64,000 nucleotides of DNA. Origin: Takakia lepidozioides (Eukaryota > Plantae > Bryophyta). Both the position numbers and the translations under genes were made by a program. How positions within the stretch are numbered: position 1 is the first letter of the stretch; the number at the start of each line of letters is the position of its first letter. The notes under the pieces are model-generated. The model had not been told where the DNA came from. It saw only the letters and a list, made by a program, of their open reading frames with translations, and ran no database searches. Below are positions 389 through 58,150 of this stretch, in pieces. The DNA is taken from the NCBI GenBank assembly GCA_030704615.1, contig CM060733.1, forward strand, positions 20,708,001-20,772,000, given 5' to 3'.

Positions 389-1485
389 GTGCTTTGTACA
401 GTCACCATGTCGGTCTTTGGTGCCAGGATCAGTGACACCATGTATGGTATGAATGAGGGTGCAGTGCATCAAGGTGAAGAGCCGAGTCAAGACAAAGAAG
501 TGAATAAAGCATTTGGGCCTTCTAGAGGTGGCAGAGCACCACAGCCTGGGGGAAGAGGCAAGAAAGGCAAACAAGTTGTTGTATCATCATATTCAACTTT
601 GGAAGTGAGAACCAAGAGGCCTCGCCAACCCAATTGGGAACACGACGAAGTGATGTCTCTGATCAAAGACAAAATAAATGAACATATGGCATCCATTGAA
701 AAGGTGGATCCGAGAGATCAATTTAAATCAGCAGTCACCAAGTGGAAGAAAATTGCTACACTTGTCATGGCCGAGGGCAACTCTACCTACACAAGGAATG
801 GGCCTGCATGCAAAGATAAATGGGGAGCCATCTATGGTGACTTCAAACGGATCTTGGACTACATGAATGACACAGGCTCAACGGGGAGTACTGGGAATGA
901 GTCCACATGACAGATTGCGTTGAGCCTACCCAGACATTTCAACAAAAGATGTAGTACAGCTATTGATGCATTTATGGGCGCTAGACCAATTTTCAGGCCC
1001 CCACATGCACGAGATTACATCCTCGACGACGATACAGTTTACACTCCTATCGGTTTTTCTGACGATGCACTTTCAACAGAACAAACGACCCAGGATCTGA
1101 ATTCTCCACCAAGGATGAATACGATGAATCCTAATTCTGACACAGACCAGGGATTGCAAGGTGATTGGCAAGTACCCAACGTCTTTTCTCCCTCCATTCC
1201 TACATCTGTACCACCGTTTGTGACCCCTATAACCGAACCTGTGTTCATCCCTCATAGATGCACAACTGATGTGCCTCGTCAACCTCGGGCAACATCTCCA
1301 ATTCATACCACCTCTCAGTCGACCTCCCCACCTCCATTTGCACCAAGCAAGAGGCCTGGAAACAGAGGTGTAAAACGGAATTCATCATCTATGCACAAGG
1401 ACATGGTGGAGGCCACTGAGAAATGCAGTAAACTGCTAGCAGAATCTCTTGATCGCATACACGAGACGAGTTTGGTCATTGAAGA
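389..1485 (+). pseudogene. Harbinger Myb/SANT-like (trihelix) DNA-binding protein, 5' part
   Basis: RQPNWEHDEVMSLIK...WKKIATLVMAEG...RNGPACKDKWGAIYGDFKRI trihelix signature, then a Pro/Ser/Thr-rich linker; broken near 910 and cut by the insertion at 1486. Confidence 0.8.
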
Positions 1486-1809
1486 TGTCAAGTTATTTTA
1501 CCACTAGTATGAAACTAGCTAGGAAATAGCTAGCTTTTACATATTGACATTTGGGATTGGCCCAAGTGTCAATCCAGGGTCAAGGCAGATTTAGGCCCTG
1601 GAGTGGTTATCTTCACGGCAAGCGCGGGAGGCTCATCTTTCTCGAGTTGAGCCTCACCGCGCCTAGCTATGGCGCCGTAGTGTGGATTCCCCATGGCGTG
1701 GGGCACTTGGCTTGACTTGTATTTGAGTGATGAGGTTATATATGCATGAGTTTATGCTTCAGCTTTGTGAGCTCGCATGAGCTTGTGCTTGTATTCTTCT
1801 TCTTTATCA
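1486..1809 (+). repeat. Terminal repeat A1 (3' part of the LTR)
   Basis: TGTCAAG...TTTATCA; nearly identical to 12253-12579 (3 substitutions and 2 small indels counted by eye). Confidence 0.95.
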
Positions 1810-1825
1810 CTCGAGAAAGATGAGC
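1810..1825 (+). promoter_or_regulatory. Putative self-priming primer-binding site
   Basis: CTCGAGAAAGATGAGC directly follows the LTR-terminal CA and is the exact reverse complement of 1631-1646; no TGG-starting tRNA-type PBS. Confidence 0.75.
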
Positions 1826-2504
1826 TCGTATCTGTGAGTGCCAGATACGAGTTAGTTGTAGCACTTGTGGTTTTTGCTTGAGAATGAGAGAAACCAAGTT
1901 GTTATGCAAGGAGCACCGTGGAGCTCTTGGTTGTTAGAAGCGGAGGCGATGTGGGTTACGAGGTGGTAGACCTTGGCATTCGATCTTCAGCTTCAGAGAT
2001 GAAAGCACCATGCTGCAGGTAATTCCAGAGCACCTTGATGGTTTCAGATTGTGTACATGCATGAGCAAGCACGATTGGGAAGAGGACCAGTCAAGAGCAG
2101 GTTATAGTGGCTTTGGTGGCAAAGCTGAGAACTGGACTTGGGAATGCGAGCTTTCATTGTGTGAAGGATTGCAAGACCAAGCGAAAGGGCTGATTTGGCT
2201 TGGGGCAAATCAGTGCACTTTGTGGAGTATGGTGAGATTGGGTTTCAATCTCGAGCTTCAGCATTGAGAGGGCTCTTGTCATGGCAAGAGCAGGGCTGGA
2301 ACAGGAGCTAAGAGGTGCGGCAAGGCCATGGAATGTGCACCTAGGGTTTCAGAGCTTGGAAGAAGAGCTCTTGCACACCAAAGAGAAGTGTCTTGTGGCT
2401 GGAAATGTAAGCCTTAGGGTTTCAGGAGCTTGGCAAAGGCTGTGGAGTGCTTAGTCTTGTCTTAGAGAGCATCAAGGAGCCAAGGAGCCAAGATAGGGGG
2501 CTGA

Positions 2505-2915
2505 TATCTCTTGTGTGAAGAGGTTGCATGTGTGGAGCATGTATTCAGCTCATTGAAGCTTCCATCTTCAAGCTTGGAGGGCAAGCAAGAAAGAGGGAAG
2601 GGCTGACTTCCCTTATGTGAGGGCAATGCATGTGTGGAGCATGCTATCAGCCTGTGAAGGCTTGCACTTTCAGGTGTGGGAGTGCAAGAAAGGAAGGAAG
2701 GGGCTGGTTTCCCTGTAGGGCATGTGGAGCATGCTTTCAGCCCTGCTGAAGCTTGTATTTTCAGGTTGTGGGTGCAAGAAATGAAGCAAAGGAGCTGATT
2801 CTCTTATGGTGAGAGTGGGGCATGTGTGGAGCATGCCTTCAGCCCATTGAGGCTCTTGTTTTCAAGCTTTAGAGAGCTAGAACGGAAGGTCTAGGGCTGG
2901 TTTCCACTTGGAGTG
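2505..2915 (+). repeat. About four degenerate ~100-bp tandem units in the retrotransposon leader
   Basis: Recurring GCATG(TG)TGGAGCATG...CAGC...TTCA(A/G)G...GCAAGAAA...GGGCTG at ~2527, 2629, 2720 and 2820. Confidence 0.75.
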
Positions 2916-3339
2916 AAAGAAAAGCACTTGTAGGGCCTATGTGAGTTGGGGTTTCAACTTCAAGCTTGAGGGAGCGCAACTCTTGAAGCAGCAGGTGTAG
3001 GGGGCTGGAATAGGCTCTAAGACAGATGCTATGGCCAAGGAAAGTGCTTGAATGAGTGCTCACAAGGGCTGGGAACCAGCAGGGCTTGGTTGTTTGCCAT
3101 TGAGTTTAGTGGCGTGTTTGGGGAGGCTAAGTGAGAAAAGGCTTGGTTTGTGGCAACCACCTCATGGCTTAGGGCTACTATGGTGGTGTGTGGGAGCCGA
3201 AAGAGCAAGAATACCTTGCTGATTTCCTCACAGCCGCCATAGCTCGGTGGAAAGAAGCCTAGAGTCCAAGAGACACAAACCCTAGCTTGGCGTGGCTAAA
3301 CCCCTTGGAGAAATGGCTAAACTGCCAGAGCGGCCATGG

Positions 3340-3800
3340 AGGGGCTGTGACGGGCTGTGAGGCCTGTGCCGGGTGGCCCTTCGGGTTTGTGACGGGCTGT
3401 GAGGGCCTGTGACGGCTGTGCCGGTGGGCCCCTGGGGGCTGTGATGGGCTGTGAGGGCTGTGCCGGTGGCCTTTTGGGGCTATGACAGGCTGTGCCCATG
3501 GCCTTTAGGGCTGTGATGGGCTGTGAGGGCTGTGACGTGACACAGGCCGTGCCTGAGGCCTTTGGGGCTGTGACGGGCTGTGAGGGGCTGTGACAGGCTG
3601 TGCCTAGTGGTCTGTGTGGCGTGACGGGCTGTGCAGGCTGTGACAGGCTTTGCCCAGTGGCCTTTGGGGCTGTGACGGGCTGTGACAACGCTGTGGCGAG
3701 CTTGCGCATGGGGGCTGTGACAAAGGCTGTGACAGGCTGTGCCCAGTGGCCTGTGGGACTGTGCGGCTGTGACCAGTGAGCTGTGTGGGCCTCTGCTGGT
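3340..3800 (+). repeat. GGGCTGTGAC-type minisatellite in the retrotransposon leader
   Basis: Dozens of GGCTGTGA/GGCTGTGC units. Confidence 0.9.
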
Positions 3801-4699
3801 CTGTGGGGCCTGTGTTGACCTGTGGACGGCCTGTGCTGACTCGTGGAGGCACTGGTGGACTGCCTGGACTGGCCGTGGTCTTGAAGGCCGAATTTTTGAA
3901 GCTCGTGGAAGGCGGTTGAGGAGTATCTTCATGATATTCCCATGGTCAGCGAGTGAGGGAGAGAGGAGAGAAGAGTGTTGGGATGAGGGCATGCTGGGGT
4001 TAGGCATTGCTTTAGCTTTCTTCCTCGTAGTTTCCACCACCCTCTCATTAAGCCAAGACCTTTCCGTAGTCAGTCCGGGTTTGGGCTGGGGTGTCCTTGC
4101 AGGAGCAACACCGTGGAGTTGTTTTTGGTGTGGGGGAGTTGTCGTTCTGATTTCTTATGTTTGGATCCCCTCCATACCTCCTGCATGCTTGACTCTGCAC
4201 CATGCTAGTTTTGTGTGGGCGCTTGTTTTTATATAGGTGATTGGTCCGGATTTGATCACCGGCCAGTCCTAGAGCATGCTGTCGATGGTGAGGCTGGGTG
4301 ATGACCAGCCAGACCATCATTGTTTTCTTCCTGTGGTGAGGTTGGAGGTGATGACCAGCCAACCATAGGATGCTTGCGGTGGATGCAGGTATAGGTGTAG
4401 GCTATGTTAGGAACTTAGTATTCCAAACCATAAGCCGCAACAGTTTCTCTACCCCGGTTACCTTGTGGAGAGGGGTTAGGGACATGTTCATGACCGGTTG
4501 AGTGTCAACACGGAGGTGCCACTAGTTGCTGGGGACAGTGCCGGTTCGAGCACTAGTGATACTAATGGGTACACGAGACGAGTGTGTGGTTTAGGCCACC
4601 TTCACCTCCTGGTCTCTCTACGGAGGTTCTGATTGGATTGTGAATCAGGAGGACTCATACCGCGGTGCAAGTTGTTTTTCTTGCCATTGTTGTGGGACA

Positions 4700-5800
4700 C
4701 AATGGAGGAGATGTATGGAGCTACCAAGGGGCCACGAAGGTACTCTGGGGCAGTGGGCACCATCGAGTTGGATGATTTTATCCAAGAGTTTGATAGTTGG
4801 TTGGTGTGATTTGCACAAATGCGCAATCCACAACTATTTACTACCCTTTCATGGCATGGAAGGGGCTGTTTCAGCACCTTGAGGGGGCCGCCTATGGATG
4901 ATTACCATGAGTTCAGGCGGGGGCATGAGGTTGAGATCGAGGAGTGGAGGATGTACTGGTCACCCGACTATGTCTCCATTACTAGGGGTACTAGAGCCAC
5001 CACGAGGGCAGTGGCTACAACCTGCCGCTGCACCGGCAGCTTCTCAAGTAGCAGTGGGACTAGTGGGACTGGTGGTACAGTAGCTACGACGTCCACCCAA
5101 GCCACTACCGCACCAGCACTAGCACCCGTGCCTGCCTTCAACCCTGTTGTGGAGTTCTTCGAAGAGTTGAGAGGAAACTACCAAGGGGTGAGGACAGAGA
5201 AGTTGCGGAGCTTGCAAGAGTTCCAACGGAAGCCGACCGAGAGCTTGAGGGAGGCTTTCACTCGCATGAGGCGCTTGATAAATGTAACCCAAGGGGTTAC
5301 GGAAGCTCAGGCAGTCCATTCTGGTATGGGATATTGGACAAGGAGCTGAGGAGAAGGGTGCGGGATGCAACTCTCCTACAAGCGGCCCAACCCACCTTAA
5401 CAAATGTGTTTTTGCTGGCAGAGCGGATAGAGCTCAACATGGTGGAGGAACGAGTTGGTCATGGTGGGATTTACTAAGGAGACACCACGGGGTATGGTGC
5501 TCCTAGCCAACCACTACCTCAACGTGCTCAAGGCAACAAGGGGGCTCAGGTGAAGCTTAGGGAAGGGCAGAGAGGACCTCAGATGCAGGGGTCTCTTCCT
5601 TCGTTTGCTGCCAACAACGGCGGATGTGGTGTGCTGGACATGTGGAGGACCCCATGTCAGAAGGATTGCCCAGAGGGAGGCAAAGGGCCGGCACATGCAC
5701 AGCCTACACAGTTGAGCAGTGTGGGCATTGTGGCAAGCACGGGCATGGAGAGGCCTAGTGTTATGGTTTGCATCCTGAGTTGCGCCCAGGGTCAGTTCCA
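4700..5800 (+). pseudogene. gag: Gypsy gag (capsid-like domain plus two zinc knuckles), frameshifted
   Basis: FFEELRGNYQGVRTEKLRSLQEFQRKPTESLREAFTRMRRL; knuckles CWTCGGPH..KDC (~5633) and CGHCGKHGHGEA*C (~5720). Confidence 0.8.
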
Positions 5801-6619
5801 AGGGAACAATGGTGGCCGGGGCGAGGTGGAGCAGCCCAGAGGACGAGGTGGCCAACCACGAGGTGCAGCCAAGGGCAAGCTCAAATGGCCAAGGACGCGG
5901 AGGTCAGGGTGTTGACCAAGGCATGGCCAACCGGCTTCAGCACTAGAGCAGACGCTCGCTGCCATGACTACAGCTCAGGTGGTACCGGCTCTAAGGCCGG
6001 ATGGTCCACCTCTTGCTCCTGAGGGAGGAGATATGGGAGCATGGGATTCATGTGTGGAGCAGCACTACCACTAGTGCAGGTGGAGTCTACTGCAGTCGTG
6101 ACTCAAGGAGCAGCACGAGTTCCTGAGCCACGAGGTACAGAGGTGGAGTTGGATCCACAGCGTGGGGAGGCAAGCCGTCAGGCTAGGCTTCCTCAGTCAT
6201 TCACATTGGCGAGACAGTGTCGACGCCATCCATGGCACCTAGTTCTCGCCCAACTGTTACCCGAGGCGGAGGTTACTATGCCATTGGGGAGAGCTACACG
6301 GGTAGCACCACTACCTAGTGTTGCCAAGCTACGGCAGCTAGTGTGCTGCTAGGAGCAAGCCACATCTGTGTGCCAGGCTCCATTGTTCTCGGCTACCATG
6401 ATTGCGACGCCGGGGGTAAGACCACTGAGGTGTTCAGGCTGGCAGCTACACTCTGTGAGAGTGGGGATTTTACGTCATCTTCTGCGGAGATAGTGGGAGG
6501 TGTAGTTCCGGAGGGATCCTCGGATTTGAGGGTCAAGACTGCCACGACGGCGCCATGGCAAGCTGCAGCTGCCAGGTTGATGAAGCTGCCAACTAGGCCA
6601 GCCATTGAGCGCGCCATGT

Positions 6620-7030
6620 GACACCTGGAGTTGTCATGTTAGACAACTAGATGACATTTTCTGTTGGGGTGGACCGGCAGGCAAGAGGTACCCACCGGCC
6701 ACTGCGGGTCTTGTTGGACTCGGGAGCTCAGCCATTGATGCTGGGCAGAGCTGCTATTGCAGGCTTGGGCCTCACGAAGGCGGATATGAGCCTTGTCCTT
6801 TCCAGATACAGACGTCTCTGGGAGGATCGGAGCAGGCTCGGGGCATGACACGGCGTGAGTTGGCTATCAGACTACGGCCCGGATCACCCTACAATAGCTC
6901 AGTGATGCGAGCCAAGGCCATTGTGACAGACGCGGTCTCATACGATGTCCTGGTTGGTGGGCCAGTGTTGTACCCCATGGGCTTTACCCTGGATTTTTTG
7001 GGAGGAGTCAGCTTTCTATAGGCCTGCCAT
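6620..7030 (+). pseudogene. Retropepsin-like aspartic protease
   Basis: RVLLDSGAQ catalytic motif and downstream YDVLVGG...MGFTLDF. Confidence 0.85.
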
Positions 7031-7419
7031 TGGCAGTCAGGGGAGGGCCGGCGTGTGTAGCTCCCTATGACTTCATAGGAGGAGTTGCGGTTGCCCAACG
7101 AGGCAAGATGCCGACACTAGCACATTCAAAGCGGCAGTGAGTTGGCCTAGAGAGTTGCTTGAGGGCAACGATCATTCAGAGGATGTGCCACCTCCGGGAG
7201 AGCATGATGACATGTATGGTATGGCGGAGTTGCCTACCATGGTTGCTCAGACTCCATTGTGGGCCACGAGCAAGGATTTGCAGAGGGATGCTGATAGACG
7301 GGTGCAACAAGCCTGGGTGGAGGCTTTTTACCGTCAGGAGAGGAGGAGAGTGCGGGGATTGCACCAGGACCACCTCAGTTGTCTCCATTGGACACCACAC
7401 CATGTGGCAGTATCCGGAT

Positions 7420-8400
7420 GAAAGCATTTGTCTTCTGGACTTTTTTGGCGGGATCAAACACCCGGATTGGCTGCTGTGGTACACAAGGCAGGTGTACGAG
7501 TTCGGCGTTACCTGTACGTGGAGAGGGATGAGACTGCACGACGCGTTTCACTTCGCCATGTTGCTCAGTTGGTGCAGCGGTACCCTGAGTTATTGTCGGT
7601 GTCTGCAATTCGTGGATATCAGTAGGCCTTGCCAGCAACATTTCGTTGCTGGGGGCACAGGATTTGGAGCGGGTTGGCTCCATTGATCTGGTATTGGCAG
7701 GTTGGCCCTGCCAAGGGCATTCATCAGCCGGGCATGGCAATGGATTCGAGACTCGAGGTCGGGTCTGTTTTGGGAGATGGGCGGGTTTTGCGCCACTTGC
7801 AGCTTCATCAAGCTGTATCTACCAGGCATACATCTTGGAGAATGTGCCACTGATGGGCGATTCTCGGGCCAGGGTGATGGCCAGTGTGCATCAGTCCGTT
7901 CATGGCTTAGGTCAGCAGTGTTGCTAGATGCAGCTACAGTGGGGTCACGGGCTTATCGTCCACGGCTATGGTGGACTAACTGATGCCACCCGCACTGCTC
8001 AAAGCGTGCATTTGATTGGGGTGCAGCGCCAGCACATCTCACAGTGGATAGCATTCTGGACACAGGGAGGCAGTCTCAGCGTGTGAGACACGATGACCGT
8101 TTGCCTTTGGCAGTGGTCACAAGGTGGGTCAACCACGAGCAGCATTACCTACATTGCTCAGTTTCCCAGGATCGCATGCTTTCTGGGATAGTGGATCTGG
8201 CCTCCTGTGGGATGCTCATTTTGTAGTAGTTAGTGGAGCTAATGCTGACGAGCGTGAGCGGGCAATGGGTTTTACCACTGGTACCACCACGGCGGTGTCG
8301 TCTCTTTCTGAGGCATCACGTCGTCAAAGTGTTGGGGCAAGCAATGGATCTCAATTGCTTGACCTGGATTATCAGCTTGGCTCTGGCTGAGCAACGCAGA
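7420..8400 (+). pseudogene. C5 cytosine DNA methyltransferase domain (DNMT3-like) within the polyprotein, copy 1, frameshifted
   Basis: Motif I CLLDFFGGI, motif IV DLVLAGWPCQGHS, motif VI YILENV, motif VIII AYRPRLWWTN, motif IX ADERERAMGF, motif X VLGQAMD, in canonical order. Confidence 0.9.
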
Positions 8401-8789
8401 GTGCGGAGTACACTTCCCTCGATGGTCTCTCTGCCTACCGATACGGTACAGGCAGTGAGTGGGGGCGAGCATGTGAGGACCACGGGGTGCATACATCCAT
8501 GGCACACGTGGGAGGTGCTCGAGGTTCAGGGGAGTTGGCAGCCAAGGCGGCTGTGATGGATGAGGTTGGGGATTCTTGCCGGTTGAGGAGGTCCTCAAGG
8601 ATGAGATGATGGGGCAGGATGATGCCTTGTCATTGACTGAGCAGGCAGGGAGTACTGCTCAAGAGGTTGCAACATAGCAACCACTGGACGCGTCCTTACC
8701 TCTAAGCCCACTGGACTTAAGGTTGCAGTTACGGAGGACAATTGGGAGCCTGACATTGGACCCATTGTCACCGAGGAGAGAGACGACGT

Positions 8790-10170
8790 ATACGGCGGTT
8801 CCTGAGGGCTTACAAGAATTGCTTTGCCTTCAGTTTGAAGGACTTGGGAGCACTGAAGGGTCAAGAGATCCGTATTGAGTTGGCCACTGACACGCCAATC
8901 TTTCGGAGACCCTATAGATACAGTGACATGGAGAGGTCTTTGATAAGATGAGGACTCAAGATCTCTGGGAGGCAGGTTTGGTGGAGCTCTCTGGTGGAGA
9001 GTATGCTTCAGCCACAGTGATGCCAGCCAAGAAGGATGTCTATGGCAATTGGACGGAGAGACGTATGTGCGGTGATTACCGGCCTGTAAATCGTCAGACC
9101 AAGTCCGATAAGTATGCCATGCCAACACCAGAGGAGATCTTTGATGCCATCGGGCATGCTAAGGCCTTTAGCACTTTCGATTTACGATCCGGATATCACC
9201 AGTTGCCAATCAAGGAGGCGGACAAGCAGAAGACGACATTCTGGGGGATCAATGAGCACGGCAAGGATTGCCTATATCAGTTGGCGGTTTCTTACTATTT
9301 GGGCTTAAGAATGCTCCTACAGAGTTTCAGAGAGTCATGGATATGATTCTAGCAGGGGTGGACTTTGCTCGGTGCTACATAGATGACATCATCATCTTTA
9401 GTGTTACGATGGAGGAGCATGAGAGACACCTTCAGGTGGTATTGGAGCGCTTGAGAGCGCACGGATTGAAGTTCCATCCGGGCAAGTGCAAGTTTTTTCA
9501 CAACCAGATTGAGTATCTGGGTCATATGATATATCCTGGAGGATTGGGGGTACAGCAGACTAAGGTAGAGGCCATCGCACAAATTCCACGCCCCACGGAT
9601 GTGAGCCGAGTTCGAGCTTTCATGGGGTTGGCAAAACTATTATAGACGGTTTGTCAAGGGATTTAGTACCATTGCAAAGGCTCTAACCAAGCTGACCAAG
9701 GTGGACCAAGAGTGGCAGTGGGAAGATGAGCATGAACGAGCTTTTCAAGAGCTCAAGGTGAGGTTGACCTCGGCGCCTATCCTGAGACGACCTATCAGGG
9801 GGCGTCCCTTTCAGCTGCATACGGATTGGAGCATGTTGGGGCTTGGAGCGGTGCTCACACAGGTGGATGATGAGGGAAGAGAGTTCGTAGTGGTTTATGC
9901 TAGCCGCTCGAACAACGCTGGAGAGGCTAAGTACAGCTCATATGAGGGAGAGTGCTTAGCTGCAGTGTGGGCCGTGGCACACTTCAGGTGCTATCTATAC
10001 GGCAATCTTTTCACCCTTGTCACGGATCACCAACCACTCAAGTGGTTGATAGAGTCAGACAAGCTACGGGGAAGCTTGCACGGTGGGCACTCATACTCCA
10101 GGAGTATGACTTTCAGGTTGTGCATCGACCGGGTTTGGTCAATCGGGATGCGGATGGATTGAGTCGCAAT
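8790..10170 (+). pseudogene. pol: Reverse transcriptase and RNase H (Ty3/Gypsy)
   Basis: RMCGDYRPVN, DLRSGYHQL, FGLKNAP, YIDD, YLGH; RNase H FQLHTDWS..GLGAVLTQ, TDHQPLKW, NRDADGLSR. Confidence 0.95.
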
Positions 10171-10519
10171 CCATGCACGAGCCAACATGATGACATTGGA
10201 GCTCGGTGGCATGGTGAGACGGACGAGGAGATGGTGCCGAGATGGCACGCATCTGCATTTTTGTGTATCTTGGAATCGGGAGGTCAGGTTGGACCTACTA
10301 CAGGGATGACTGTAGACGGAGTGTCTGAGGACCGTGAGGCTAGTGATGAGCCAGGTGGTGCCAGAGATATACATGAGGATTCGGCTGTGTGGACTACTCC
10401 GCACGGGAGCCACGACAGCCACTGTGACTGCCAGGGAGAGGGATCGGATCCTGCAACGAGCCAAGAGGTTCAAGTGGGAGGGGATACACCTACTCACTAC
10501 TTCAAGTGTGGAGGATGAT

Positions 10520-11813
10520 CGGGTGAGGATTGTGCTTCACCCCACACAGCGTGCACGGTTAGTGCGGCATGCCCATGAGGAATTGGGGCATTTTGGAGTG
10601 CGACGCACTCACAGTTTACTGCAGGGGCAGTATTGGTGGCGTGGTATGCATACAGAGGTGCAACAGTTCGTGGCTAGGTGCATGTGTGTGACAGGGTGCG
10701 TGCTTCATTTCAACGCCCCTACACCACAGTTGCATCCTTTACCAATCATGGGATTGGGCTACAGGTGGAGTCTTGACTTCGCAGGACCGTTGCCACTGAC
10801 TATGCGCCACCACAGATATGTGTTGGTGATGGTGGAGCACTTCTCCAAGTGGGTTGAGTTGGTTCCATTGCCTGACAAGGCTAGTGAGGGGGCTGCGTAT
10901 GCATCTTGGATCGTGTGCTTAGCCGATTTGGTGCTCCAGCTGAGGTACTCACGGACCAAGGGAGAGAGTTCTTGGGGGAGTTTCAAGCTTTGTGTAATAA
11001 AGCCTTGATAGACCACCGCACCACTTCTCGAGATCATCCTGAGGCCGATGGCTTGGCAGAGAGAGTTGTTCAGACGGTGAAGAGGGGTTTGCGCAAGTAT
11101 GGCTTACAGAAGGGACACCTAGGAGATTGGGATCTTCAGGTTCCTTGGTTAGTCATGGGCTACAGGTTCAGCAAACAAACATCACTTGCCTCCTTCTCAC
11201 CATATTTCCTTTTCTTTGCCTGAGAGCCGGATTTGCCTGCAGCCATTCGTAGGGACACTGCTCAAGTCCTTAACCTTGACGATCCGGACGTGTGGGTACG
11301 TGCATGTGATCAGCATGCAGAATTGTTCAAGAAAGTCATGCCCATGGCTTTTGAGAACCTTGCCATTGCACAGCACCGTGATACGTTGAGGTATGCCACT
11401 ATACGTGGTGGAGGATATCGTCCTGGGTTCGAAGGTTTAGCCCTGGTGACTATGTTTATTTGCAGCAGACTGCTCCTACGACTCTGGATGTTACTGCAGG
11501 GCGTGTTATTCTGAGGGTTCGAGAGGTGTTGCCCTCAGGGGTCCTAATCTTGGAGGGTCGGGATGACATGACTTGGAAGGACCATGTGCGTAATTGTGCG
11601 CCATGTCACCTTCCCAATGTCGATGGCAGAGTTGACCCAAACTTGGCAGTGGTACCTGCAGGTTTGAGGTGCATGCTCTGTGGGTCTGCCAAAAGGGCAG
11701 CCACCATGCTGGTGTGTGATCGATGCTCAAGGGGTTGGCATATGGGATGTTTGATACCACCTCTTGAGAAGGTTCCTGACGGAGATTGGTTGTGTCCACA
11801 CTGCTTGGGATAG
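10520..11813 (+). pseudogene. DDE integrase with HHCC zinc finger and C-terminal PHD finger
   Basis: HEELGHFG...C; LDFAGP, TDQG, AERV; C4HC3 finger CMLC...LVCDRCSRGWHMGCLIPPLEKVPDGDWLCPHC at 11670-11804; stop at 11811-11813. Confidence 0.92.
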
Positions 11814-12062
11814 TGGTAGTGGACATGACTGGAGGCAACTAACAAGACATGGGAGGCCAAGCTCATAGGAGTCAATACATGAGATCCCAAGCTCAAGTTC
11901 ACAGGTTGCAAGACGGCGACTAACGATGGGGCAACTCTTGCACCCGGCCTCTTGATCTATCGAGTTTGAGTGTAGTAGGGATAGTGGTGGAAGACTTAGT
12001 GAGGCTATGGTCACTATCACATCTTGTGGCTACCTGGACTTAGAGGGACCTAAGCACCAGCT

Positions 12063-12072
12063 AGGGGGGCGA
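12063..12072 (+). promoter_or_regulatory. Polypurine tract
   Basis: AGGGGGGCGA just upstream of the TG that starts repeat B1. Confidence 0.75.
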
Positions 12073-12073
12073 T

Positions 12074-12250
12074 TGTATGGACTAGTGACTGCCATAGTGG
12101 GCAGCATAGTGGCAGCCTAGTGACTGACTAGTTGTAGCCTAGTGGTTGGACTAGTGGCTGGACTAGTGGTATACTAGTGTGTGGTGTGCACATGTGTTGT
12201 GTGGTTTTGGACAACGATGTAGTTGTGTAGCGATATGTATGTGCACGACA
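12074..12250 (+). repeat. Terminal repeat B1 (5' part of the LTR)
   Basis: TGTATGG...CACGACA, CTAG-rich; matches 12581-12768. Confidence 0.95.
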
Positions 12251-12252
12251 AC

Positions 12253-12579
12253 TGTCAAGTTATTTTACCACTAGTATGAAACTAGCTAGGAAATAACTAG
12301 CTTTTACATATTGACATTTGGGATTGGCCCAAGTGTCAATCCAGGGGTCAAGACAGATTTAGGCCCTGGAGTGATTATCTTCACGGCAAGCGCGGGAGGC
12401 TCATCTTTCTCGAGTTGAGCCTCACCGCGCCTAGCTATGGCGCCGTAGTGTGGATTCCCCATGGCGTGGGGTGCACTTGGCTTGACTTGTATTTGAGTGA
12501 TGAGGTTATATATGCATGAGTTTATGCTTCAGCTTTGTGAGCTCGCATGAGCTTGTGCTTGTATTCTTCTTCTTTATCA
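12253..12579 (+). repeat. Terminal repeat A2
   Basis: Direct repeat of 1486-1809. Confidence 0.95.
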
Positions 12580-12580
12580 A

Positions 12581-12768
12581 TGTATGGACTAGTGACTGCC
12601 ATAGTGGGCAGCATAGTGGCAGCCTAGTGACTGACTAGTTGTAGCCTAGTGGTTGGACTAGTGGCTGGACTAGTGGTGGACTAGTGGTATACTAGTGTGT
12701 GGTGTGCACATGTGTTGTGTGGTTTTGGACAGCGATGTAGTTGTGTAGCGATATGTATGCGCACAACA
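12581..12768 (+). repeat. Terminal repeat B2
   Basis: Direct repeat of B1 with one extra 11-bp GGACTAGTGGT unit; ends CACAACA, followed by the TSD AAGA. Confidence 0.95.
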
Positions 12769-13022
12769 AAGAGAAACGCACGAAGACACAAGAGTTTCTT
12801 CTGTACACGCAGTTGGACTACTTCAAAATGAGAGACAAAGAAGTAAACCGCACTCAAAACAACATGGTCAGAGCTATCATAGATTTGACGAGAGTAATGG
12901 GGCTTGCATTTGTGAAGGGTGCCCATCCTAAAGATGTAGGAGGTTCCAATGCAAGAGGGGCAAGAGGTTGCAGTGACGAGGAAGACTCTTCTCATGTAGG
13001 TGCAGACAATTCCAACATGTGA
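12769..13022 (+). pseudogene. Harbinger Myb/SANT-like protein, 3' part
   Basis: Removing 1486-12772 gives the in-frame junction ...SLVIE-EKRTKTQEFLLYTQLDYFKMRD..., continuing a helical segment. Confidence 0.8.
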
Positions 13023-13149
13023 AAAAAAGACTACAGAATAAAACTTCATATAGCTACAGTGAATTGTAAAAACTATAGATGATTTGACTACGAAATAATG
13101 GCATCGGCAGTGGCTTGATAAATAACATGCTCACATGTAGTCATGCTAG

Positions 13150-14409
13150 GTTGCGTTGACGACCCAGATATATCGCCAATTGAGTGCATTTCTGAACACC
13201 CGATATTTCCTAACCCTGAATGAATTCAGTTTCTGGTCTGTCATTGCCAAATTCTGGTCCTTCGTTGTATTCTGGCCTTGGCAATGCTTGGTTTTCTCTC
13301 TCAATGATTCTCATCAGCCTCTCAAGGTCATCTTCCCTTCTGCCCCTGATAAGGTTATGCAGGATGCAACAACATGTAAACACATCTGGAACCAAAGTGA
13401 CATGAAGCTCAGTTTTGCAAAGCGTTTCTCTGAAGGTTTTTTTCATGATTCCGAAAGAATTTTCGACTACAGATCTTCCTCTTCTGTGTCTACGATTGTA
13501 CAAGCTAGGATCGAATGATTGCCCTCTTTACGTGGTGTCATTATCCAAGAAATGCAAGGGTAGCCCTTATCGCCAAGGAGATAGGGAGAAAATCCATCCT
13601 GTGAACCCCTGTCCATGTTAAATAATCCCTGGTGTTGTGCTTTCCGGTAGAGTCCAGAAGTCTTTAATACCCGAGAATCATTGACACTTCTTGGCTCATT
13701 CCAATGTATATATCCTTGAATTTTTTGTTGCAATCAACTACCCTTGTGCAACCATTGAGTAACTTTCTGTTTTGTGGTAATAATAATCATCTGCAACTGG
13801 TCCCAGTGGTTTAGCGATCGCAATGTGTGTGCCATTGATTGCTCCGTGAATACTTGACAAACCACACTAGCTTTTGAACTCGGCCATTACTGTCTCCATT
13901 TTTCTACCTACAGGCCATGCAATGAGATTCCGAAAGAGAAGATTGACAGACCACACTACCTCATGAATTACTAGTGACACAGTCGATCGTCCAATCGCAA
14001 ATTGTTCGCTACACGTGAGTAAATTAGCCCCTTGAGCTAATTTGTAAAGAACGCATGATACCCTAATTTCAATTGGTATTGCTATTCTATATAAATTGGT
14101 GTCCTGCTTTTGAATGAAAGGCTTCAACTTATCACACATGTAGAAGACACTCTCTTTGGACATACAAATTTTTTGTATCTAGCGATCATCATCGAACTCT
14201 GTCAACAAGAAAATGGAAAACCACGTAGTGCTACGAGGTTTCACCCAATCTCCGAGGTCAGGATTTGTCTCTGCAATGAAATCGGGTAGGAAGAAAGGTG
14301 GAGTCTTATTTGTAGTTTCAATCATATTTCGTGCCATTTCCACAAGGAGAACCAGAAAACTTGAGCACAAAATCAATTCCTCGATGCTTGGCTCATTAGA
14401 GGAATCCAT
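13150..14409 (-). pseudogene. PIF/Harbinger (HARBI1-like) DDE transposase
   Basis: HTH region (FAIGRSTVS), IHGAINGTHI (catalytic D replaced by N), SVNDSRV, YLLGDKGYP, RSVVENSFGIMK; several stops and frameshifts. Confidence 0.9.
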
Positions 14410-34748: not shown

Positions 34749-36057
34749 ATGACGTCCATGACTGAACTTTTTTATGGTCACAACGAGCCCACCTACATCA
34801 TGAGCAATTATGCGGATCGCTCTACCTACATGCAACCTGTAAGTCCTGGCACTACCCTCAAGAGCTTTAGAATCTTTCTGTCTCTCTTCAAGGAGGTATA
34901 CCACCAGTTGACACCACGACGACAATGTCGCTGGGGAGGTCAAGCTTCCATGTTGCCTCGTAGGAAAATTTAGCCCGGGTCGTATGTTGAAAACTTTTGT
35001 GGGCAATATGCTCCGAACAAATGAACACATTCTTGAATGGATCGCAGCTGTGGATCTAACTCGTGGCATGGTTGCTCCTTGTGTCAGCGTCTTGAACTAC
35101 AGGTACCCATGTGCTGCACGAAGTGTGAAAAGAAAGTGAAGAACGAACTGCTGGAAATGGATGGTAAGTGGAGCTTAGTTGGCGGACATCTGCTTCCAAG
35201 TTGGACTACCCTATCTCCCATCTTCCATTTGATTTAAAACACGGTGAACTCCCTCTTTGCGGGTGCCACAACAATCGCAGATCTATGACGTGCTAATTTG
35301 CAATCACCAAGAATGCAATCACCAAGAATCTGGCAAGCGAGAATTATTTAGATTGTTTTTATGTTTTCGCCCCACATGGCCCTTGAAAGCTTGAAGTTTT
35401 CAATTAGCTGTCAACTCCACCGTGAAGGATCTCCTGAAAATTCAGTGCACAGAGAGAGCGATCTACGTATTTTGGATCACAGTAGTGATTTGAGTCGAGC
35501 AAAGTTCTAAAACACATAATTATGTCTTTCCATGCAGGTCTGTACAAATTTATAATTTTACTTTGACCGGGTCACATGAGCCTGAGCAACGTTCTGATAG
35601 GTGGATGGCTTCTGGATCTGCAGGGGTTCAGGGGGTTGTCTGTGACCAATTTCGGCAGAAGGTGACTGTCGCTGGCGATGTGAACCCCGAGAAAGTACTC
35701 AAATGCGTGAAGCGCATAAAAGATAGCTCGGATTTCTGGACCCGCAGCAGCCATCACGGTCGATCAGCACACGTTCGCTCAAGTTCCGGCTATGCAGAGT
35801 CTAGTGTTCCCTACAGCCATTACTCGCATAGCTCTCACGTTCGATCATCACATGGGCACTCAAGTTCCTACACAGTGTCTCCTCCCTACCCTCCATCATC
35901 CTACAGGGATCAGAGCTTCGACAGCCAGTACCCCCGTTTCTACAGCCCGTCAAGTTGCAGCCCCTCTTATAGCGAGAACTGCTACACCCAGTACAACCCT
36001 TCCTACGGGGGCTCGTCCTACAATCCAGCATTCAGCCATTCATATAGTCACTACTGA
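34749..36057 (+). CDS. HMA domain protein (predicted 199 aa)
   Basis: Exons 34749-34838, 35088-35163 and 35624-36057; RLELQVPMCCTKCEKKVKNELLEMDG-VQGVVCDQFRQKVTVAGDVNP; Ser/Tyr/His-rich tail. Confidence 0.9.
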
Positions 36058-40199: not shown

Positions 40200-41227
40200 T
40201 GGAAAGCTGAGAGAAGTGCAAAAGAGGAGTGAAAGACATCCATCACAGCAAACATGTTACTAAGAGCCCCTTTCCCCAAAGGCTACTTGCTACTGTTCAG
40301 GATGCTTAAGCTTAGTATCAGACACATAGACCAAGGTAATCATTGTCATACCTCTTTCCGGTTTCAGAAGCTCTGAAAGAGTTCCTAGCTGTGCAGGCAT
40401 TCTGTCAAGCTCTAGTAGAGTGGTTACAAATGGAGTGCTCTCTAATGTTGTCCTCTCTCTTTAGCTCGGTCAGGATGTCCCTTATCCCCCTTTCTTTTTT
40501 TCATTGCAGCTAATAACCTGGGCTACTTTTTGGACAGTAACCCTAGTTGATGGCATCCATCTCGGGCCGGCAGATCACTTTAAAACTTCTATGTATGCTA
40601 ATGACTCAGTTTTGTTTCTTAGGAATGACTCCATGTCCCCTATCTAGGCTACTCTCAAGAGTATAAAGGTCTTTTGTTCAGCCTCTGGCTTCTCTGTCAA
40701 CTGGGGCAAAACGGTAGGATTGCTTTCCCGTCCTAACCGCGGCTCCCCCCTCACAATCCTCGTTAGGGTGAGGAATTAGGCATCCGTTGGCTCAGAGATG
40801 GTTAGTCCTATACCCTCCTTGCACATCAGGTGGGCACGGGACTCTCGTGGCAGCAATGTTTCCTGCAAACTTGCTTAAGTTGAGCTCAATTACTGGAGCT
40901 CCACAACACCCACAATTATAGGAAGAGCACTTACGGCCAATCAAATTCTCCTAGCTTCCACATGGTTCATTGCCTCAGTCTGGGACCCGGGCCCTAGACC
41001 TTTATGCAAGCAGATCAGGCATCTCATCAGAAATTTCATTTGGGGTGCTCCCACGACCGGGCAGAATCGTAGAGCCCTGCTTGCTTGGAATTAGCAGCTT
41101 TGTATGAGTAAGAAGCACGGGGAACTAGGAATTTTTGACATTGAATTGCAAGTCAATGCTCTTCTTACTAAATGGCTCCCTTTTGCCATTCTCAATCCTC
41201 ATGCCCCTTGGTCTTGGCTTCTAATTC
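40200..41227 (+). mobile_element. Degenerate L1-type LINE ORF2 fragment
   Basis: Remnants QGCPLSP (~40470), YAND (YADD-like, ~40593), ASGFSVNWGKT, and KKHGELGIFDIELQVNALLTKW. Confidence 0.75.
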
Positions 41228-42480
41228 GAAGGCATATGCCTTCTGGACTTATTTGGCGGGATCAGCACTGGATTGGCTGCAGTGCTGCAGGCAGGTGTAC
41301 GAGTTCGACGTTATCTGTATGTGGAGAAGGATGAGACTGCACGACGCGTCTCACTGCGCCATGTTGCTCGGATGCTGCAGCAGTACCCTGAGTTGTTGCC
41401 GGTGTCTGCAGTTCGTGGATATCAGCAGGCCCTGCCAGCAGACATTGCGTTGCTGGGGGCGCAGGATTTAGAGCGGGTTGGCTCCATTGATCTGGTATTG
41501 GCAGGTTGGCCTGCCAAGGGCATTCATCAGCCGGGCATGGCAATGGATTGCTAGACTCGAGGACGGGTTTGTTTTGGGAGATGGTGCGGATTTTGCGCCA
41601 TTTGCAGCTTCATCAAGCTGTATCTCCGACATACATCTTGGAGAATGTGCCGCTGATGGGTGATTCTCGGGCCAGGGTGATGGCCAGTGTGCATCAAGTC
41701 CGGTCGTGGCTTGGGTCAGCAGTGTTGCTGGATGCAGCTGCAGTGGGGTCACGGGCTCATCGTCCACGACTATGGTGGACTAACTTGATGCCACCCGCAC
41801 TGCTCAAGCGTGCATTTGATGGGGTGCAGCGGCCAGCACACCTCACCATGGATGGCATTTTGGACACAGGAAGGCAGTCTCAACATGTGAGACACGATGA
41901 CCGTTCGCCTTTGGCAGTGGTCAACAGGGTGGGTCAACCACGAGCAGCATTATCTACACTGCTCAGCTTCCCAGGATCCCATGCTTTTCGGGATGGTGGA
42001 CCTGGCCTCCTGTGGGATGCTCAGTTGCAACAGTTAGTGGAGCCTAATGCCGACGAGCGAGAGCGGGCTATGGGGTTTTCCACTGGGACCACGGCGGTGC
42101 CTTCTCTTTCTGAGGCATCACGTCGTCAGGTGTTGGGGCAAGCAATGGATCTCAATTGCTTGACCTGGATTATCAGTTTGGCTGTGGCTGAGCAACGTAG
42201 AGTGCAGAACGCACTTCCCTTGACGGTCTCTCTGCCTACCGAGACGGTACAGGCAGCGAGTGGGGGCAAGCCGGTGAGGACCACGGGGTGTAGACATCCA
42301 TGGCACACGTGGGAGGTGCTCGAGGTCCAGAGGGAGTTGGCAGCCAAGGCAGCTGTGATGGATGACATTGGGGATTCTTCTTGGGTTGAGGAGATTCTCA
42401 ATGATGAGATGATGGGGCAGGATGAGGCCTTGTCATTGACTGAGCAGGAAGGGAGTACTGCTCAAGAGGTTGCAGCATAG
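41228..42480 (+). CDS. C5 cytosine methyltransferase domain, copy 2, intact except for one 1-nt deletion
   Basis: EGICLLDLFGGISTGLAAVLQAG...DLVLAGW(P)CQGHSSAG...YILENV...AHRPRLWWTN...EPNADERERAMGF...RRQVLGQAMD. The only break is CC instead of CCC at the PC motif (~41510). Confidence 0.85.
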
Positions 42481-45247
42481 CAACCACGGGACGCGTCCTC
42501 TACCTCTAAGCCCACTGGACTTAAGGTTGCAGATACGAAGGACAATTGGGAACCTGACATTGGACCCATTGTCACCGAGAGAGACGACGACGTATGCGGC
42601 GGTTCCTGAGGGCTTATAGGAATTGCTTTGCCTTCAGTTTGAAGGACTTGGGAAGCACTGAAGGGTCAAGAGATTCGCATTGAATTGGCTACTGACACGC
42701 CAATCTTTTGGAGATCCTATAGATACAGTGACATGGAGAGGTCCTTGATTCAGATGAGAACTCAGGATCTTTGGGAGGCAGGTTTGGTGGAGCTCTGGTG
42801 GAGAGTATGCTTCAGCCACAATGATGCCAGCTAAGAAGGATGTCTATGGCAATTGGACGGAGAGACGTATGTGCGGTGATTACCGGCCTGTAAATCATCA
42901 GACCAAGTCCGATAGGTATGCCATGCCAACACCAGAGGAGATCTTTGATGCCATTGGGCATTCCAAGGTCTTTAGCACGTTGGATTTACGATCCGGATAT
43001 CACCAGTTGCCGATCAAGGAGGCGGATAAGCAAAAGACGGCATTCTGGGGGATCAATGAGCACGGGAAGGATTGCCTATACTAGTGGCGGTTCTTACCAT
43101 TTGGGCTTAAAAACGCTCCCGCTGAGTTTCAAAGAGTCATGGACAGGATTCTAGCAGGGGGTGGAGTTTGCTCGGTGCTACATAGATGACATCATCATCT
43201 TTAGTGCTACGGTGGAGGAGCATGAGAGACACCTTCAGGGGGTATTTGAGCGCTTAAGGACGCACGGATTGAAGTTACATCGGGCAAGTGCAAGTTTTTC
43301 CACAACCAGATTGAGTATCTGGGTCACATGATATATCCTGGAGGATTGGGGGTACAGCAGACTAAGGTAGAGTCCATTGCACAGGTTCCACGCCCCACGG
43401 ATGTGAGCCGAGTTTGAGCTTTCATGGGGTTAGCAAACTATTACAGACGGTTTGTTAAGGGATTCAATGCCATTGCAAAGGCTCTAACCAAGCTGACCAA
43501 GGTGGACCAGGAGTGGCAGTGGGAAGATGAGAGCAAGAACAAGCTTTTCAAGAGCTCAAGGCGAGGTTGACCTCGGCGCCCATCTTGAGACGACCTATCA
43601 GGGGGCGTCCTTTTCAGCTGCATACAGATTGGAGCATGCTGGGGCTTGGAGCGGTGCTCACACAGGTGGATGATGAGGGAAGAGAGTTCGTAGTGGCTTA
43701 TGCTAGCCGCTCGAACAATGCTGCAGAGTCTAAGTATAGCTCATATGAGGGAGAATGCTTAGCTGCAGTGTGGGCCATGGCACACTTCAGGTGCTATCTA
43801 TATGGCAATCTCTTCACCCTTGTCACGGATCACCAACCACTCAAGTGGTTGATGGAGTCAGACAAGCTTACGGGGAAGCTTGCACGGTGGGCACTCATCC
43901 TTCAAGAGTATGACTTTCAGGTGGTGCATCGACCGGGTTTGGTCAATCGCAATGCAGATGGGTTGAGTCGCAATCCATGCACGAGCCAGCAGGATGACAC
44001 TAGAGCTCGGTGGCATGGTGAGACGGACGAGGAGATGGTGCCCGGATGGCATGCATCTGCATTTCTGTGTATCTTGGCAGCGGAAGGCCAGGTTGGACCT
44101 GCAACAGGGATGACTGTAGATCAAGTGTCTGAGGACCCTGAGGCCAGCAATGAGCAAGGTGGCGCCAAAGATATACATGAGGATTCAGTTGTGTTGGACT
44201 ACCTCCGCACTGGAGACACGGCAGCCACTTTGACTGTCAAGGAGAGGGATCGGATCCTACAACGAGCCAAGAGGTTCAAGTGGGAGGGGACACACCTGCT
44301 CCGAGTGTGGGAGGATGGTCGAGTGAGGATTGTGCCTCACCCAACACAGCGGGCACGGTTAGTGCGCCATGCCCATGAGGAGTTGGGGCATTTTGGGGTG
44401 CGACGCACTCATAGTCTACTGCAGGGGCAGTATTGGTGGCGTGGTATGCACACAGAGGTGCAACAATTTGTGGCTAGGTGCATGGTGTGTGACAGGGTGC
44501 GTGCTTCATTCAACGCCCCTACTCCACAATTGCACCCTCTTCCGATCATGGGATTGGGCTACAGGTGGAGTCTTGACTTCGCAGGGCCGTTGCCACTAAC
44601 CATGCGCCACAACAAGTACGTGTTGGTGATGGTGGAGCACTTCTCCAAGTGGATTGAATTGGTTCTATTGCATGATAAGGCTAGTAAGGGAGCTGCGTAT
44701 GCATTCCTGGATTGTGTGCTTAGCCGATTCGGTGCTCCGGCTGAGGTACTCACGGACCAAGGGGAGAGAGTTCTTGGGGGAGTTTCAGGCTTTGTGTGAC
44801 AAGGCCTTGATAGACCACCGCACCACTTCTCGGGATCATCCTGAGGCCGATGGCTTGGCAGAGAGAGTTGTTCAGACAGTAAAGAGGGGTTTGCGCAAGT
44901 ATGGCTTGCAGAAGGGACACCTAGGAGATTGGGACCTTCAGTTACCCTGGTTAGCCATGGGCTACAGGTTCAGCAAGCAAGCATCACTTGCCTCCTTCTC
45001 ACCATACTTTCTTCTCTTTGGCCGAGAGCCGGATTTGCCTACATCCATTCGCAGAGAAGCTGCTACAGTTCTTAACCTTGACGATCCAGACGTGTGGGCA
45101 CGTGCATGTGAGCAGCGTGCAGAGTTGTTCAAGAGAGTCATGCCCATGGCTTTCGAGAACCTTGCCATTGCACAACACCGTGATACGTTGAGGTATGCTA
45201 CCATACGTGGTGGGGGCTATCGTCCTGGGGTTCGGAGATTCAACCCT
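41228..45247 (+). mobile_element. Second, truncated copy of the DNMT-carrying Gypsy family (DNMT-RT-RH-IN; no LTR, gag or PHD)
   Basis: Collinear with ~7420-11444, roughly 90% identical by eye; long ORFs at 41506-42480 and 43567-44799. Confidence 0.93.

Positions 45248-55557: not shown

Positions 55558-55595
<38 letters not shown>

Positions 55596-56408: not shown

Positions 56409-56455
<47 letters not shown>

Positions 56456-57270: not shown

Positions 57271-57305
<35 letters not shown>

Positions 57306-58118: not shown

Positions 58119-58150
<32 letters not shown>

Follow-up and report, generated by a model that had tools for sequence, protein, structure and literature searches.

A Gypsy retrotransposon lineage of bryophytes and green algae with a DNMT3-like methyltransferase, split repeats and, in a moss, an in-frame stop after the methyltransferase domain

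Results

Architecture of the element

We analysed a 64,000-nucleotide stretch of the genome of the moss Takakia lepidozioides (GCA_030704615.1, contig CM060733.1, positions 20,708,001 to 20,772,000; hereafter the window, numbered from its first letter), which holds two copies of a Gypsy retrotransposon with a C5 cytosine methyltransferase domain upstream of its reverse transcriptase (RT). All features of both copies lie on the forward strand (+).

Copy 1 spans 1486-12768 and is flanked by a 4-bp target-site duplication, AAGA (1482..1485 on the left and 12769..12772 on the right). Its two repeated sequences, A and B, are arranged as A...B-A-B: repeat A1 forms the left end of the element (1486..1809, beginning TGTCA), and repeats B1 (12074..12250, ending CACGACA), A2 (12253..12579) and B2 (12581..12768, ending ACA) follow one another at the right end, where a polypurine tract (12063..12072) stands 5' of B1. 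The primer-binding-site position (1809..1825) immediately 3' of A1 is followed by a long leader with tandem repeats and no convincing open reading frame (ORF) (1826..4701), in which a search for an antisense or extra ORF found none. The coding region then comprises Gag (4702..5800; capsid and zinc-knuckle region), an aspartic protease (6630..7050; LLDSG at 6711; Pfam E 0.0066, below the cut-off), the methyltransferase domain (7420..8400), RT with RNase H (8820..10170; YIDD at 9376), an integrase consisting of an H2C2 zinc finger and the core (10500..11230), and a C-terminal PHD finger with its stop codon (11670..11813; PF00628, E 3.7e-11). Gag, protease, RT-RNase H and integrase are all broken. 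The methyltransferase motifs fall in three different frames interrupted by stop codons; copy 1, whether dead or mis-assembled, is therefore not an open gene. The Gag start of copy 1, MEEMYG, agrees with the ORF1 starts of Marchantia relatives. The Gag region matches Retrotrans_gag below the Pfam cut-off (E 6.9e-4), and the predicted fold of the Gag of a Calypogeia relative has the PNMA2, Arc and HIV capsids as its top-ranking matches (best E 2e-3); the N-terminus of ORF1 thus looks capsid-like in these models. The element has the Gypsy domain order Gag-protease-RT-RNase H-integrase with a DDE integrase.

Copy 2 (41228-45247) is 90.9% identical to 7420-11444 of copy 1 and is cut at both ends, without Gag, protease or repeats. 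It retains the methyltransferase domain (41228..42201; motif I at 41240), which has a single frame break at motif IV and is open from 41491 (open stretch 41491-42480), and RT, RNase H and integrase (42487..45247), truncated before the PHD finger. A remnant of a plant LINE-type RT, recognized by eye (40560-41227), directly adjoins its cut 5' end.

The methyltransferase domain is DNMT3-like and under purifying selection

Copy 1 contains motif I (LLDFFGG, 7432), RRYLYVE (7503) and motifs IV (PCQG, 7706), VI (ILENV, 7832), VIII (RPRLWWTN, 7957), IX (ERERAMGF, 8250) and X (GQAMD, 8335), all between the LLDSG of the protease and the YIDD of RT, as an earlier sequence-only reading of the window had proposed together with the diverged copy 2, whose domain indeed lies just upstream of RT (41228-42480). 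The open stretch of copy 2 matches PF00145 above the cut-off (E 4.3e-7; 30.1 bits against 22); the Pfam search gave no match for the motif-I piece 41228-41512 alone or for the copy-1 ORF 7141-7683. A family profile built from 23 natural relatives scored DNMT3A at E 5e-19 (72 bits), M.HhaI at 1e-9, DNMT2 at 2e-7 and DRM2 at 7e-7. The AlphaFold2 model of the stop-free domain of a relative, L001, has a pLDDT of 92.5, and among the Foldseek matches listed for it were DNMT3A/B/C only (best E 3.5e-21, TM 0.74). The motif order I-IV-VI-VIII-IX-X is non-permuted; a DRM methyltransferase, with its permuted order (VI-X before I-V), was ruled out. Profile and predicted fold therefore support the DNMT3-like identity that had been suggested from the motifs; an origin from DNMT3 also leans on the published description of a related algal element, KnitGypsy-Dnmt3 (PMC5890265). 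The methyltransferase tree described below included no host DNMT3, which counts against this assignment, and the affinity is drawn from profile, fold and that paper.

Between copies 1 and 2, the ratio of nonsynonymous to synonymous substitution (dN/dS) is 0.28 in the methyltransferase domain (95% interval 0.17-0.46; 304 codons) and 0.20 in RNase H-integrase, compared with 1.07 in the adjacent linker; in the intact pair L028/L030 it is 0.12 in the methyltransferase, 0.05 in RT and 0.54 in the linker. Ratios far below 1 in the domain relative to the linker show that the methyltransferase is selected and is not a passenger: the domain is under purifying selection. The catalytic motifs show no neutral decay: of 137 distinct domains, 132 retain the Cys of motif IV, 135 the Glu of motif VI, and 131 and 133 the two Arg of motif VIII. 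Because both window copies are broken and 48 of the 54 full-length single-frame domains of the sampled loci (see below) contain stops, one might suspect an assembly artefact, a host gene captured by chance or a neutral passenger. RT, however, is equally decayed in the same loci (stops in 25/36), and the low dN/dS, the same architecture in many genomes and assemblies and the parallel splits of the RT and methyltransferase trees leave this explanation next to no credibility; we regard it as refuted by the relatives in many genomes, the conserved flanks and the dN/dS values.

We consider the domain to be probably an active DNA methyltransferase. Several observations weigh against this. In yeast, no methylation was produced by the KnitGypsy domain on its own, in an assay that its authors deem inconclusive (PMC5890265). 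The element has an observed-to-expected CpG ratio of 0.54, compared with 0.65 for its flanks, and 12 private transitions fall in mixed CG/CHG/CHH contexts; host methylation suffices to produce both, so that they do not separate it from self-methylation. An alternative is that the domain is kept for another job (RNA methylation, nucleic-acid binding in the particle, or acting as a decoy for host silencing factors), which the negative yeast assay would fit, as would the E-C in place of P-C at motif IV in 63/137 domains and the suitability of capsid-level amounts for a structural role. We think this improbable, as nearly all domains retain the catalytic Cys, Glu and two Arg, the nearest enzyme by profile and fold is DNMT3, which acts on DNA, far ahead of the tRNA enzyme DNMT2, and the related domains of SymbioDIRS-Dnmt3 methylate CG in yeast (PMC5890265).

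Relatives form one clade in bryophytes and green algae

Named relatives of the domain occur in Calypogeia fissa (74% identity), Marchantia polymorpha (many gene models, the best 72%), Sphagnum (51-57%), Closterium, Klebsormidium nitens and Coleochaete scutata, and in the chlorophytes Scenedesmus and Monoraphidium. An exhaustive search gave 552 clusters at E 1e-10 or better, and 80 metagenome loci were kept out of at least 287 confirmed. Protease upstream and RT downstream flank the domain in 49 of the 80 kept loci; 14 have only protease upstream, 12 only RT downstream, four have neither and one has RNase H upstream. Together with the relatives in Calypogeia, Marchantia and Sphagnum, these counts bear out the earlier proposal of a family trait as opposed to a chance capture. 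None of the outcomes that the sequence-only reading had named as refuting it occurred, with the proviso that loci retrieved by the methyltransferase domain leave members without the domain invisible, so that this sample cannot reveal its absence from them.

The RT-RNase H tree (175 rows) and the methyltransferase tree (154 rows) were quick searches with SH-aLRT supports and without bootstrap, which weighs against placing too much on their detail. All methyltransferase-bearing rows of the RT-RNase H tree fall in one clade of 160 rows (SH-aLRT 100). Within it the window groups with Calypogeia, Marchantia and Sphagnum-like rows (97), Coleochaete coming next (95). A form with the methyltransferase between RNase H and integrase (RH-MT-IN) makes up its own RT group (45 rows, SH-aLRT 99); its named members are chlorophytes, P0078 and P0200 (Scenedesmus) and P0230 (Monoraphidium), and it also includes L055, L084 and L085. 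The methyltransferase tree splits in the same way. Most simply, the domain would have been captured once, long ago in the green lineage, and later moved within the element; a pair of captures from a related donor is a less economical possibility.

Three K. nitens proteins, P0100, P0307 and P0325, belong to the window's methyltransferase group (SH-aLRT 95) and RT clade (100), and from their species and domains we infer that they are KnitGypsy copies of PMC5890265. The trees, together with the common split-repeat layout, substantiate the link to a charophyte element suggested before: the Takakia element is a member of the lineage described in Klebsormidium as KnitGypsy-Dnmt3, which also has members in Marchantia, Calypogeia, Sphagnum, Closterium and Coleochaete.

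A PHD finger is carried throughout the methyltransferase-bearing clade. The solved PHD fingers closest to that of the element are those of CHD4, KDM5B, PHF12, KDM5A, ATXR5, DPF3 and PHF21A, which we take to be readers of the unmethylated H3 tail. A chromovirus of the Tcn1 or Chlamyvir kind was rejected, the domain after the integrase being a PHD finger and not a chromodomain; the chromodomain-bearing rows P0368, P0373 and P0375 lie outside the methyltransferase-bearing RT clade.

A scan for viral donors with short patterns gave two weak matches to unrelated methylases among 57 pattern matches, and the corresponding scan of prokaryote genomes gave 3/388, all of them whole Gypsy contigs inside prokaryote bins. 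A prokaryotic or viral origin was set aside, no donor having been found with short patterns, which may miss distant donors. The three contigs, L083, L084 and L085, are entire eukaryotic Gypsy-methyltransferase contigs and likely mis-binned contamination; one of them has entered UniRef as a cyanobacterial protein (P0380). Outside the clade, the Gypsy polyprotein P0355 carries a Dam adenine methyltransferase and has its PHD finger ahead of the integrase; it fits the DAM-LTRs described in bioRxiv 10.64898/2026.05.21.726589.

An in-frame stop closes a Gag-protease-methyltransferase frame

In both window copies the methyltransferase frame ends about 90 codons past the domain at TAG CAA CCA (8675..8683 in copy 1, where it closes the Gag-protease-methyltransferase ORF, and 42478..42486 in copy 2), and in copy 2 the same frame runs on past the TAG into pre-RT sequence. 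UAG CAR YYA is the type I readthrough signal of tobacco mosaic virus (TMV), which functions in plants and promotes readthrough at all three stop codons (PMC13517186).

The stop was compared across the window's clade (clade 1), of which 38 loci cover the position and three further loci do not, and a second, AT-richer subfamily (clade 2: L035, L041, L043, L050 and related loci), which is about 40% identical and comes from the same kind of contigs. A stop followed by CAR-YY, the TMV-type context, stands at the matching place in 33 of the 38 clade-1 loci, with a decayed form in one more, and in 1/39 clade-2 loci. The 6-nt contexts CAACCA, CAGTTA, CAATCA and CAACCC are kept though the linkers barely align, and the full 9-nt context UAG CAR YYA is shared by the window, L022, L028, L030, L039 and L083. 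The intact L028 has one frame from 976 to 8226 whose sole stop, TAG CAG TTA, splits a 1369-codon Gag-protease-methyltransferase ORF from a 1047-codon RT-RNase H-integrase-PHD ORF; L083 is built in the same way, with TAG CAA TCA as the sole stop between the two ORFs. ORF2 of either element contains no Met before residue 116, which lies within RT. As a background, in-frame CAR-YYA makes up 8 of about 2400 codon pairs of L028. Full-length ORF1 proteins of Marchantia and the Calypogeia cluster stop 73-77 residues past the domain.

These data suggest that ORF2 is probably produced by stop-codon readthrough. A number of points weigh against this. The 33 loci are not independent: most come from one Sphagnum-like family, and all together represent some four or five different types of linker. 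In the Sphagnum-like family the context is mostly CAACCC, which is not the full CAR YYA, and the stop is TAA in six loci. The signal is absent from four covered clade-1 loci (L016, L018, L023 and L024). No stop separates methyltransferase and RT in clade-2 loci, in K. nitens P0307 and in several Closterium proteins, and a search for a conserved stop upstream of the methyltransferase in clade 2 found none. This, with the position of the chlorophyte domain inside Pol, implies that a supply at capsid level is dispensable for the clade as a whole. The TAG could also be a true end, with ORF2 (RT to PHD) made by re-initiation or from a spliced or shorter RNA: in the Sphagnum-like family a Met follows at a distance of two codons from the stop, and the gene calls for Coleochaete P0265 and Klebsormidium P0325 open with a Met some 90-120 residues upstream of RT, so that a separate ORF2 start is possible in these two. 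We consider a true end rather improbable, because the intact L028 and L083 have no Met before RT, the two ORFs remain in frame, and CAR-YY is kept across linkers that cannot be aligned. In either case the methyltransferase remains on the Gag ORF; however ORF2 is made, it lies on the abundant capsid ORF in the window's clade.

Split repeats, probable self-priming and an internal junction

Two complete, equal long terminal repeats (LTRs) were not found; the A...B-A-B layout is present alongside Gypsy enzymes, TG..CA ends, a polypurine tract before B1 and a 4-bp target duplication. The sequence-only reading had described terminal repeats differing by about 1-2%; the figure holds (A1 and A2 differ in 3/324 columns and two indels, B1 and B2 in 3/177 and one indel), whereas the repeats are split and do not form an ordinary LTR pair. 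A 4-bp target duplication is present in 6/7 full elements and a 5-bp one in none. L041, which has no target duplication, is an exception. An element of the DIRS order (Ngaro/PAT) was rejected, as the intact L028 has an rve integrase and no tyrosine recombinase match and target duplications are present.

A1 contains a stretch of 17 nt (1631..1647), a likely self-primer at the 5' end of the RNA, that is perfectly complementary to the primer-site position; none of 500 shuffles matched this, and the two are paired in the RNA fold (z -7.7). A self-complement of 10-17 nt at the primer site is significant in 7/8 elements, its sequence differing between subfamilies; L050, with no significant self-complement, speaks against generality. 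No TGG-type tRNA primer site after A1 was seen by eye, with no tRNA library compared, and a search of the window for a tRNA gene found none. Reverse transcription is thus probably self-primed, as in the Tf1/Tcn1 elements, to judge from this complementarity. Split repeats and probable self-priming are also found in clade 2.

At the B|A junction of copy 1 (12244..12257) the two terminal sequences of the element abut as CACGACA-AC-TGTCA, with a 2-nt spacer. GACA-NN-TGTC with the same spacer length stands at this junction in 14/14 elements where it was located, including the chlorophyte-type L055. A polypurine tract before B1 and a primer site after A1 imply, under the standard scheme, that the functional LTR is B+A and the cDNA B-A...B-A. 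We tentatively propose, at somewhat short of an even chance, that the integrated A...B-A-B form is the product of a two-LTR circle cut open by integrase at the internal GACA-NN-TGTC junction. The circle junctions of IS911 and the IS3 family and the two-LTR circle junctions of retroviruses likewise present a DDE enzyme with two abutted ends and a short spacer; unlike these, the junction in the window is internal to the LTR and persists after integration, and a mechanism of this kind is putative.

Copying of A...B-A-B from RNA in every cycle by template switches, without opening of a circle, is a possible alternative of which we are slightly more doubtful. It has been proposed for split-repeat elements of the DIRS order, which have the same layout (PMC5890265). 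The A|B junctions are near-uniform within families, with L041 and L053 the only deviants, so that an inherited junction fits as well as a newly ligated one, and no mirror form (A-B-A...B) was seen in seven full elements; these points weigh against circle opening. Template switching accords less well with the B-A...B-A cDNA implied by tract and primer site. The A2|B2 joint merges exactly the boundaries that the primer and the tract define. The 2-nt spacer corresponds to the overhang of processed integrase ends, and L053 has lost most of B2 at the A2|B2 joint. In that element (L053, 14482-14511) B2 has shrunk to its last few dozen bases and the target duplication is intact.

Age and surroundings of the window copies

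The near-identical repeats and intact target duplication indicate that the copy 1 insertion is young relative to the family. The many frame breaks of copy 1 fit this age poorly and may partly be assembly error. Short indels separate other copies from copy 1 at 12 places and at 19 more, and both window copies are broken, whereas intact relatives exist elsewhere. In one sequencing run (X1), 13,325 contigs match 1.5 kb of the element, which suggests a large family, the summed depth giving no copy number. Three contigs from one run guessed to be RNA match 7380-8860 and have no bearing on expression.

Copy 1 is inserted within a Myb/SANT ORF (374-1485 and 12773-13090, +; PF13837, E 9e-4, below the cut-off), and excising the element with one AAGA keeps this ORF open about 80 codons further. 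A broken DDE transposase lies beside the insertion site on the opposite strand (about 13150-14400, -) and likewise contains frame breaks. Together the two are presumably a PIF/Harbinger-type DNA transposon.

Elsewhere in the window are broken transposase-like ORFs with the Cys-rich stretch CCCKYHVEM and HGKGEHDG (47551-51019; no Pfam match for 49652-50365), a satellite of roughly 380-470-nt units made of 85-nt subunits with long inverted arms, next to an N gap (54939-59589), and a probable host exon resembling, by eye, a heavy-metal-associated domain protein (35494-36057; no Pfam match).

Discussion

Our analysis places the Takakia element beside KnitGypsy-Dnmt3 of K. nitens, with which it shares the Gypsy domains, a non-permuted DNMT3-like domain, DIRS-like split repeats and purifying selection. 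The accessible text of PMC5890265 describes that element for K. nitens alone and puts its methyltransferase in the Pol ORF with RT, whereas in the window the domain ends the Gag-protease ORF; the K. nitens gene models include both a fused methyltransferase-RT (P0307) and two models in which they are adjacent (P0100 and P0325). The same text makes no mention of readthrough, self-priming, a target duplication, an internal junction or bryophyte or chlorophyte members. Other retrotransposons bearing DNA methyltransferases, SymbioDIRS-Dnmt3 and SymbioLINE-Dnmt (PMC5890265) and the EpiLTRs and DAM-LTRs (bioRxiv 10.64898/2026.05.21.726589), differ in belonging to other retrotransposon orders or enzyme clades (DNMT4-like, Dam). 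The latter paper names "streptophytes (Gypsy-DNMT3)"; its accessible text mentions neither Marchantia nor land plants, and its figures or supplements may include Marchantia. PMC12344493 likewise reports DNMT3 in retrotransposons of "streptophytes", and its tree or supplements may already include Marchantia copies.

Single traits of the element have counterparts in other systems. The Tf1/sushi and Tcn1 chromoviruses, Ty3/Gypsy elements found in mosses and fungi, likewise have no tRNA primer site and are predicted to prime themselves, and some plant Ty3/Gypsy groups also have Gag-protease followed by a second ORF (PMC6317226); Tf1/Tcn1 elements carry a chromodomain and ordinary LTRs, whereas the window element has split repeats and encodes a methyltransferase and a PHD finger. 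The identical 9-nt context links the stop to TMV readthrough, which in the window would part Gag-protease-methyltransferase from RT (PMC13517186). The Gypsy elements of Chlamydomonas offer another comparison: REM1 reportedly bears a PHD finger and has LTRs composed of sub-parts. Gypsy-7a_cRei is also a green-algal Gypsy element with a PHD finger and LTRs of sub-parts (PMC9940879); unlike the window element it is listed there without a methyltransferase, and its PHD finger precedes the integrase, as in P0355 and P0356, which lie outside the clade. In their accessible text, PMC9940879, PMC8557442 and PMC11982613 contain nothing on the family beyond PHD fingers in Chlamydomonas elements. A literature search, outside which most subscription papers lie, returned nothing on bryophyte or chlorophyte members or Marchantia gene identifiers, and nothing on readthrough, priming or integration in the family. 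In the literature searched, the position on the Gag ORF with its stop, the split repeats with 4-bp duplications, the GACA-NN-TGTC junction and the self-priming complement are apparently unreported.

These features can be combined in one proposed life cycle. RNA starting from A1 would be translated mainly to Gag-protease-methyltransferase and now and then, through the stop, to RT-RNase H-integrase-PHD. With the domain at the end of the Gag-protease ORF and a probably leaky stop behind it, synthesis and packaging of the methyltransferase would match those of the capsid, and particles would hold many copies of it and few of RT and integrase. Self-primed cDNA would be methylated before integration; integrase would open the two-LTR circle at the left internal junction, leaving the integrated A...B-A-B form, and the PHD finger on the integrase would guide insertion. 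We slightly favour the core of this proposal, that is, a methyltransferase which ends the Gag-protease ORF, precedes a leaky stop, is packaged at capsid level and methylates new cDNA before integration. By analogy with its closest solved counterparts, it is reasonably likely that the PHD finger reads the unmethylated H3 tail and steers insertion. The most inclusive picture, a Ty3/Gypsy lineage as old as the green plants that supplies one DNMT3 copy per capsid subunit, methylates its cDNA, primes itself and opens a circle like a bacterial insertion sequence, is unlikely to hold in every part.

Regarding the substrate, the sequence-only reading had left two options, methylation of the element's own cDNA in the particle or rewriting of methylation at target sites. 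The in-frame stop favours the former by putting the enzyme in the Gag-protease ORF, and on balance we expect the main substrate to be the element's own cDNA, in the particle or just out of it. Alternatively, the enzyme could act in the nucleus on chromosomal DNA, at the insertion site, on the element's own genomic copies or on competing elements: readthrough would leave a large excess of ORF1 product, beyond the need of one cDNA, the clade always bears a chromatin-reader PHD finger, and in the chlorophyte form the domain stands directly before integrase-PHD. We consider a nuclear role unlikely, given that in the window's clade ORF1 encodes the methyltransferase and ORF2 the PHD finger, so that protease processing would part them, and that the K. 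nitens methylome is ordinary and plant-like despite the element (PMC5890265). If new cDNA is methylated, the possible gains include mimicry of host DNA, protection from editing and pre-set chromatin, options offered in PMC5890265.

A transposon that carries an enzyme of the silencing class has been a puzzle since 2018, and the sole Gypsy case in print is an alga with a negative assay. Marchantia polymorpha contains many Gag-protease-methyltransferase ORFs of about 1280 residues (e.g. Mp4g09160, Mp5g06330, Mp5g06860, MpVg00370 and MpVg00540), which, together with Marchantia genetics and methylomes, make the question testable in a land plant; the position of the stop predicts the amount and the location of the enzyme. 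These copies are annotated as hypothetical proteins and can inflate counts of host DNMT3 genes, and LTR finders that require two equal terminal repeats would miss such elements. Moreover, the internal junction of the ends and the target duplications point to an integration route that is undescribed for LTR elements in the literature searched.

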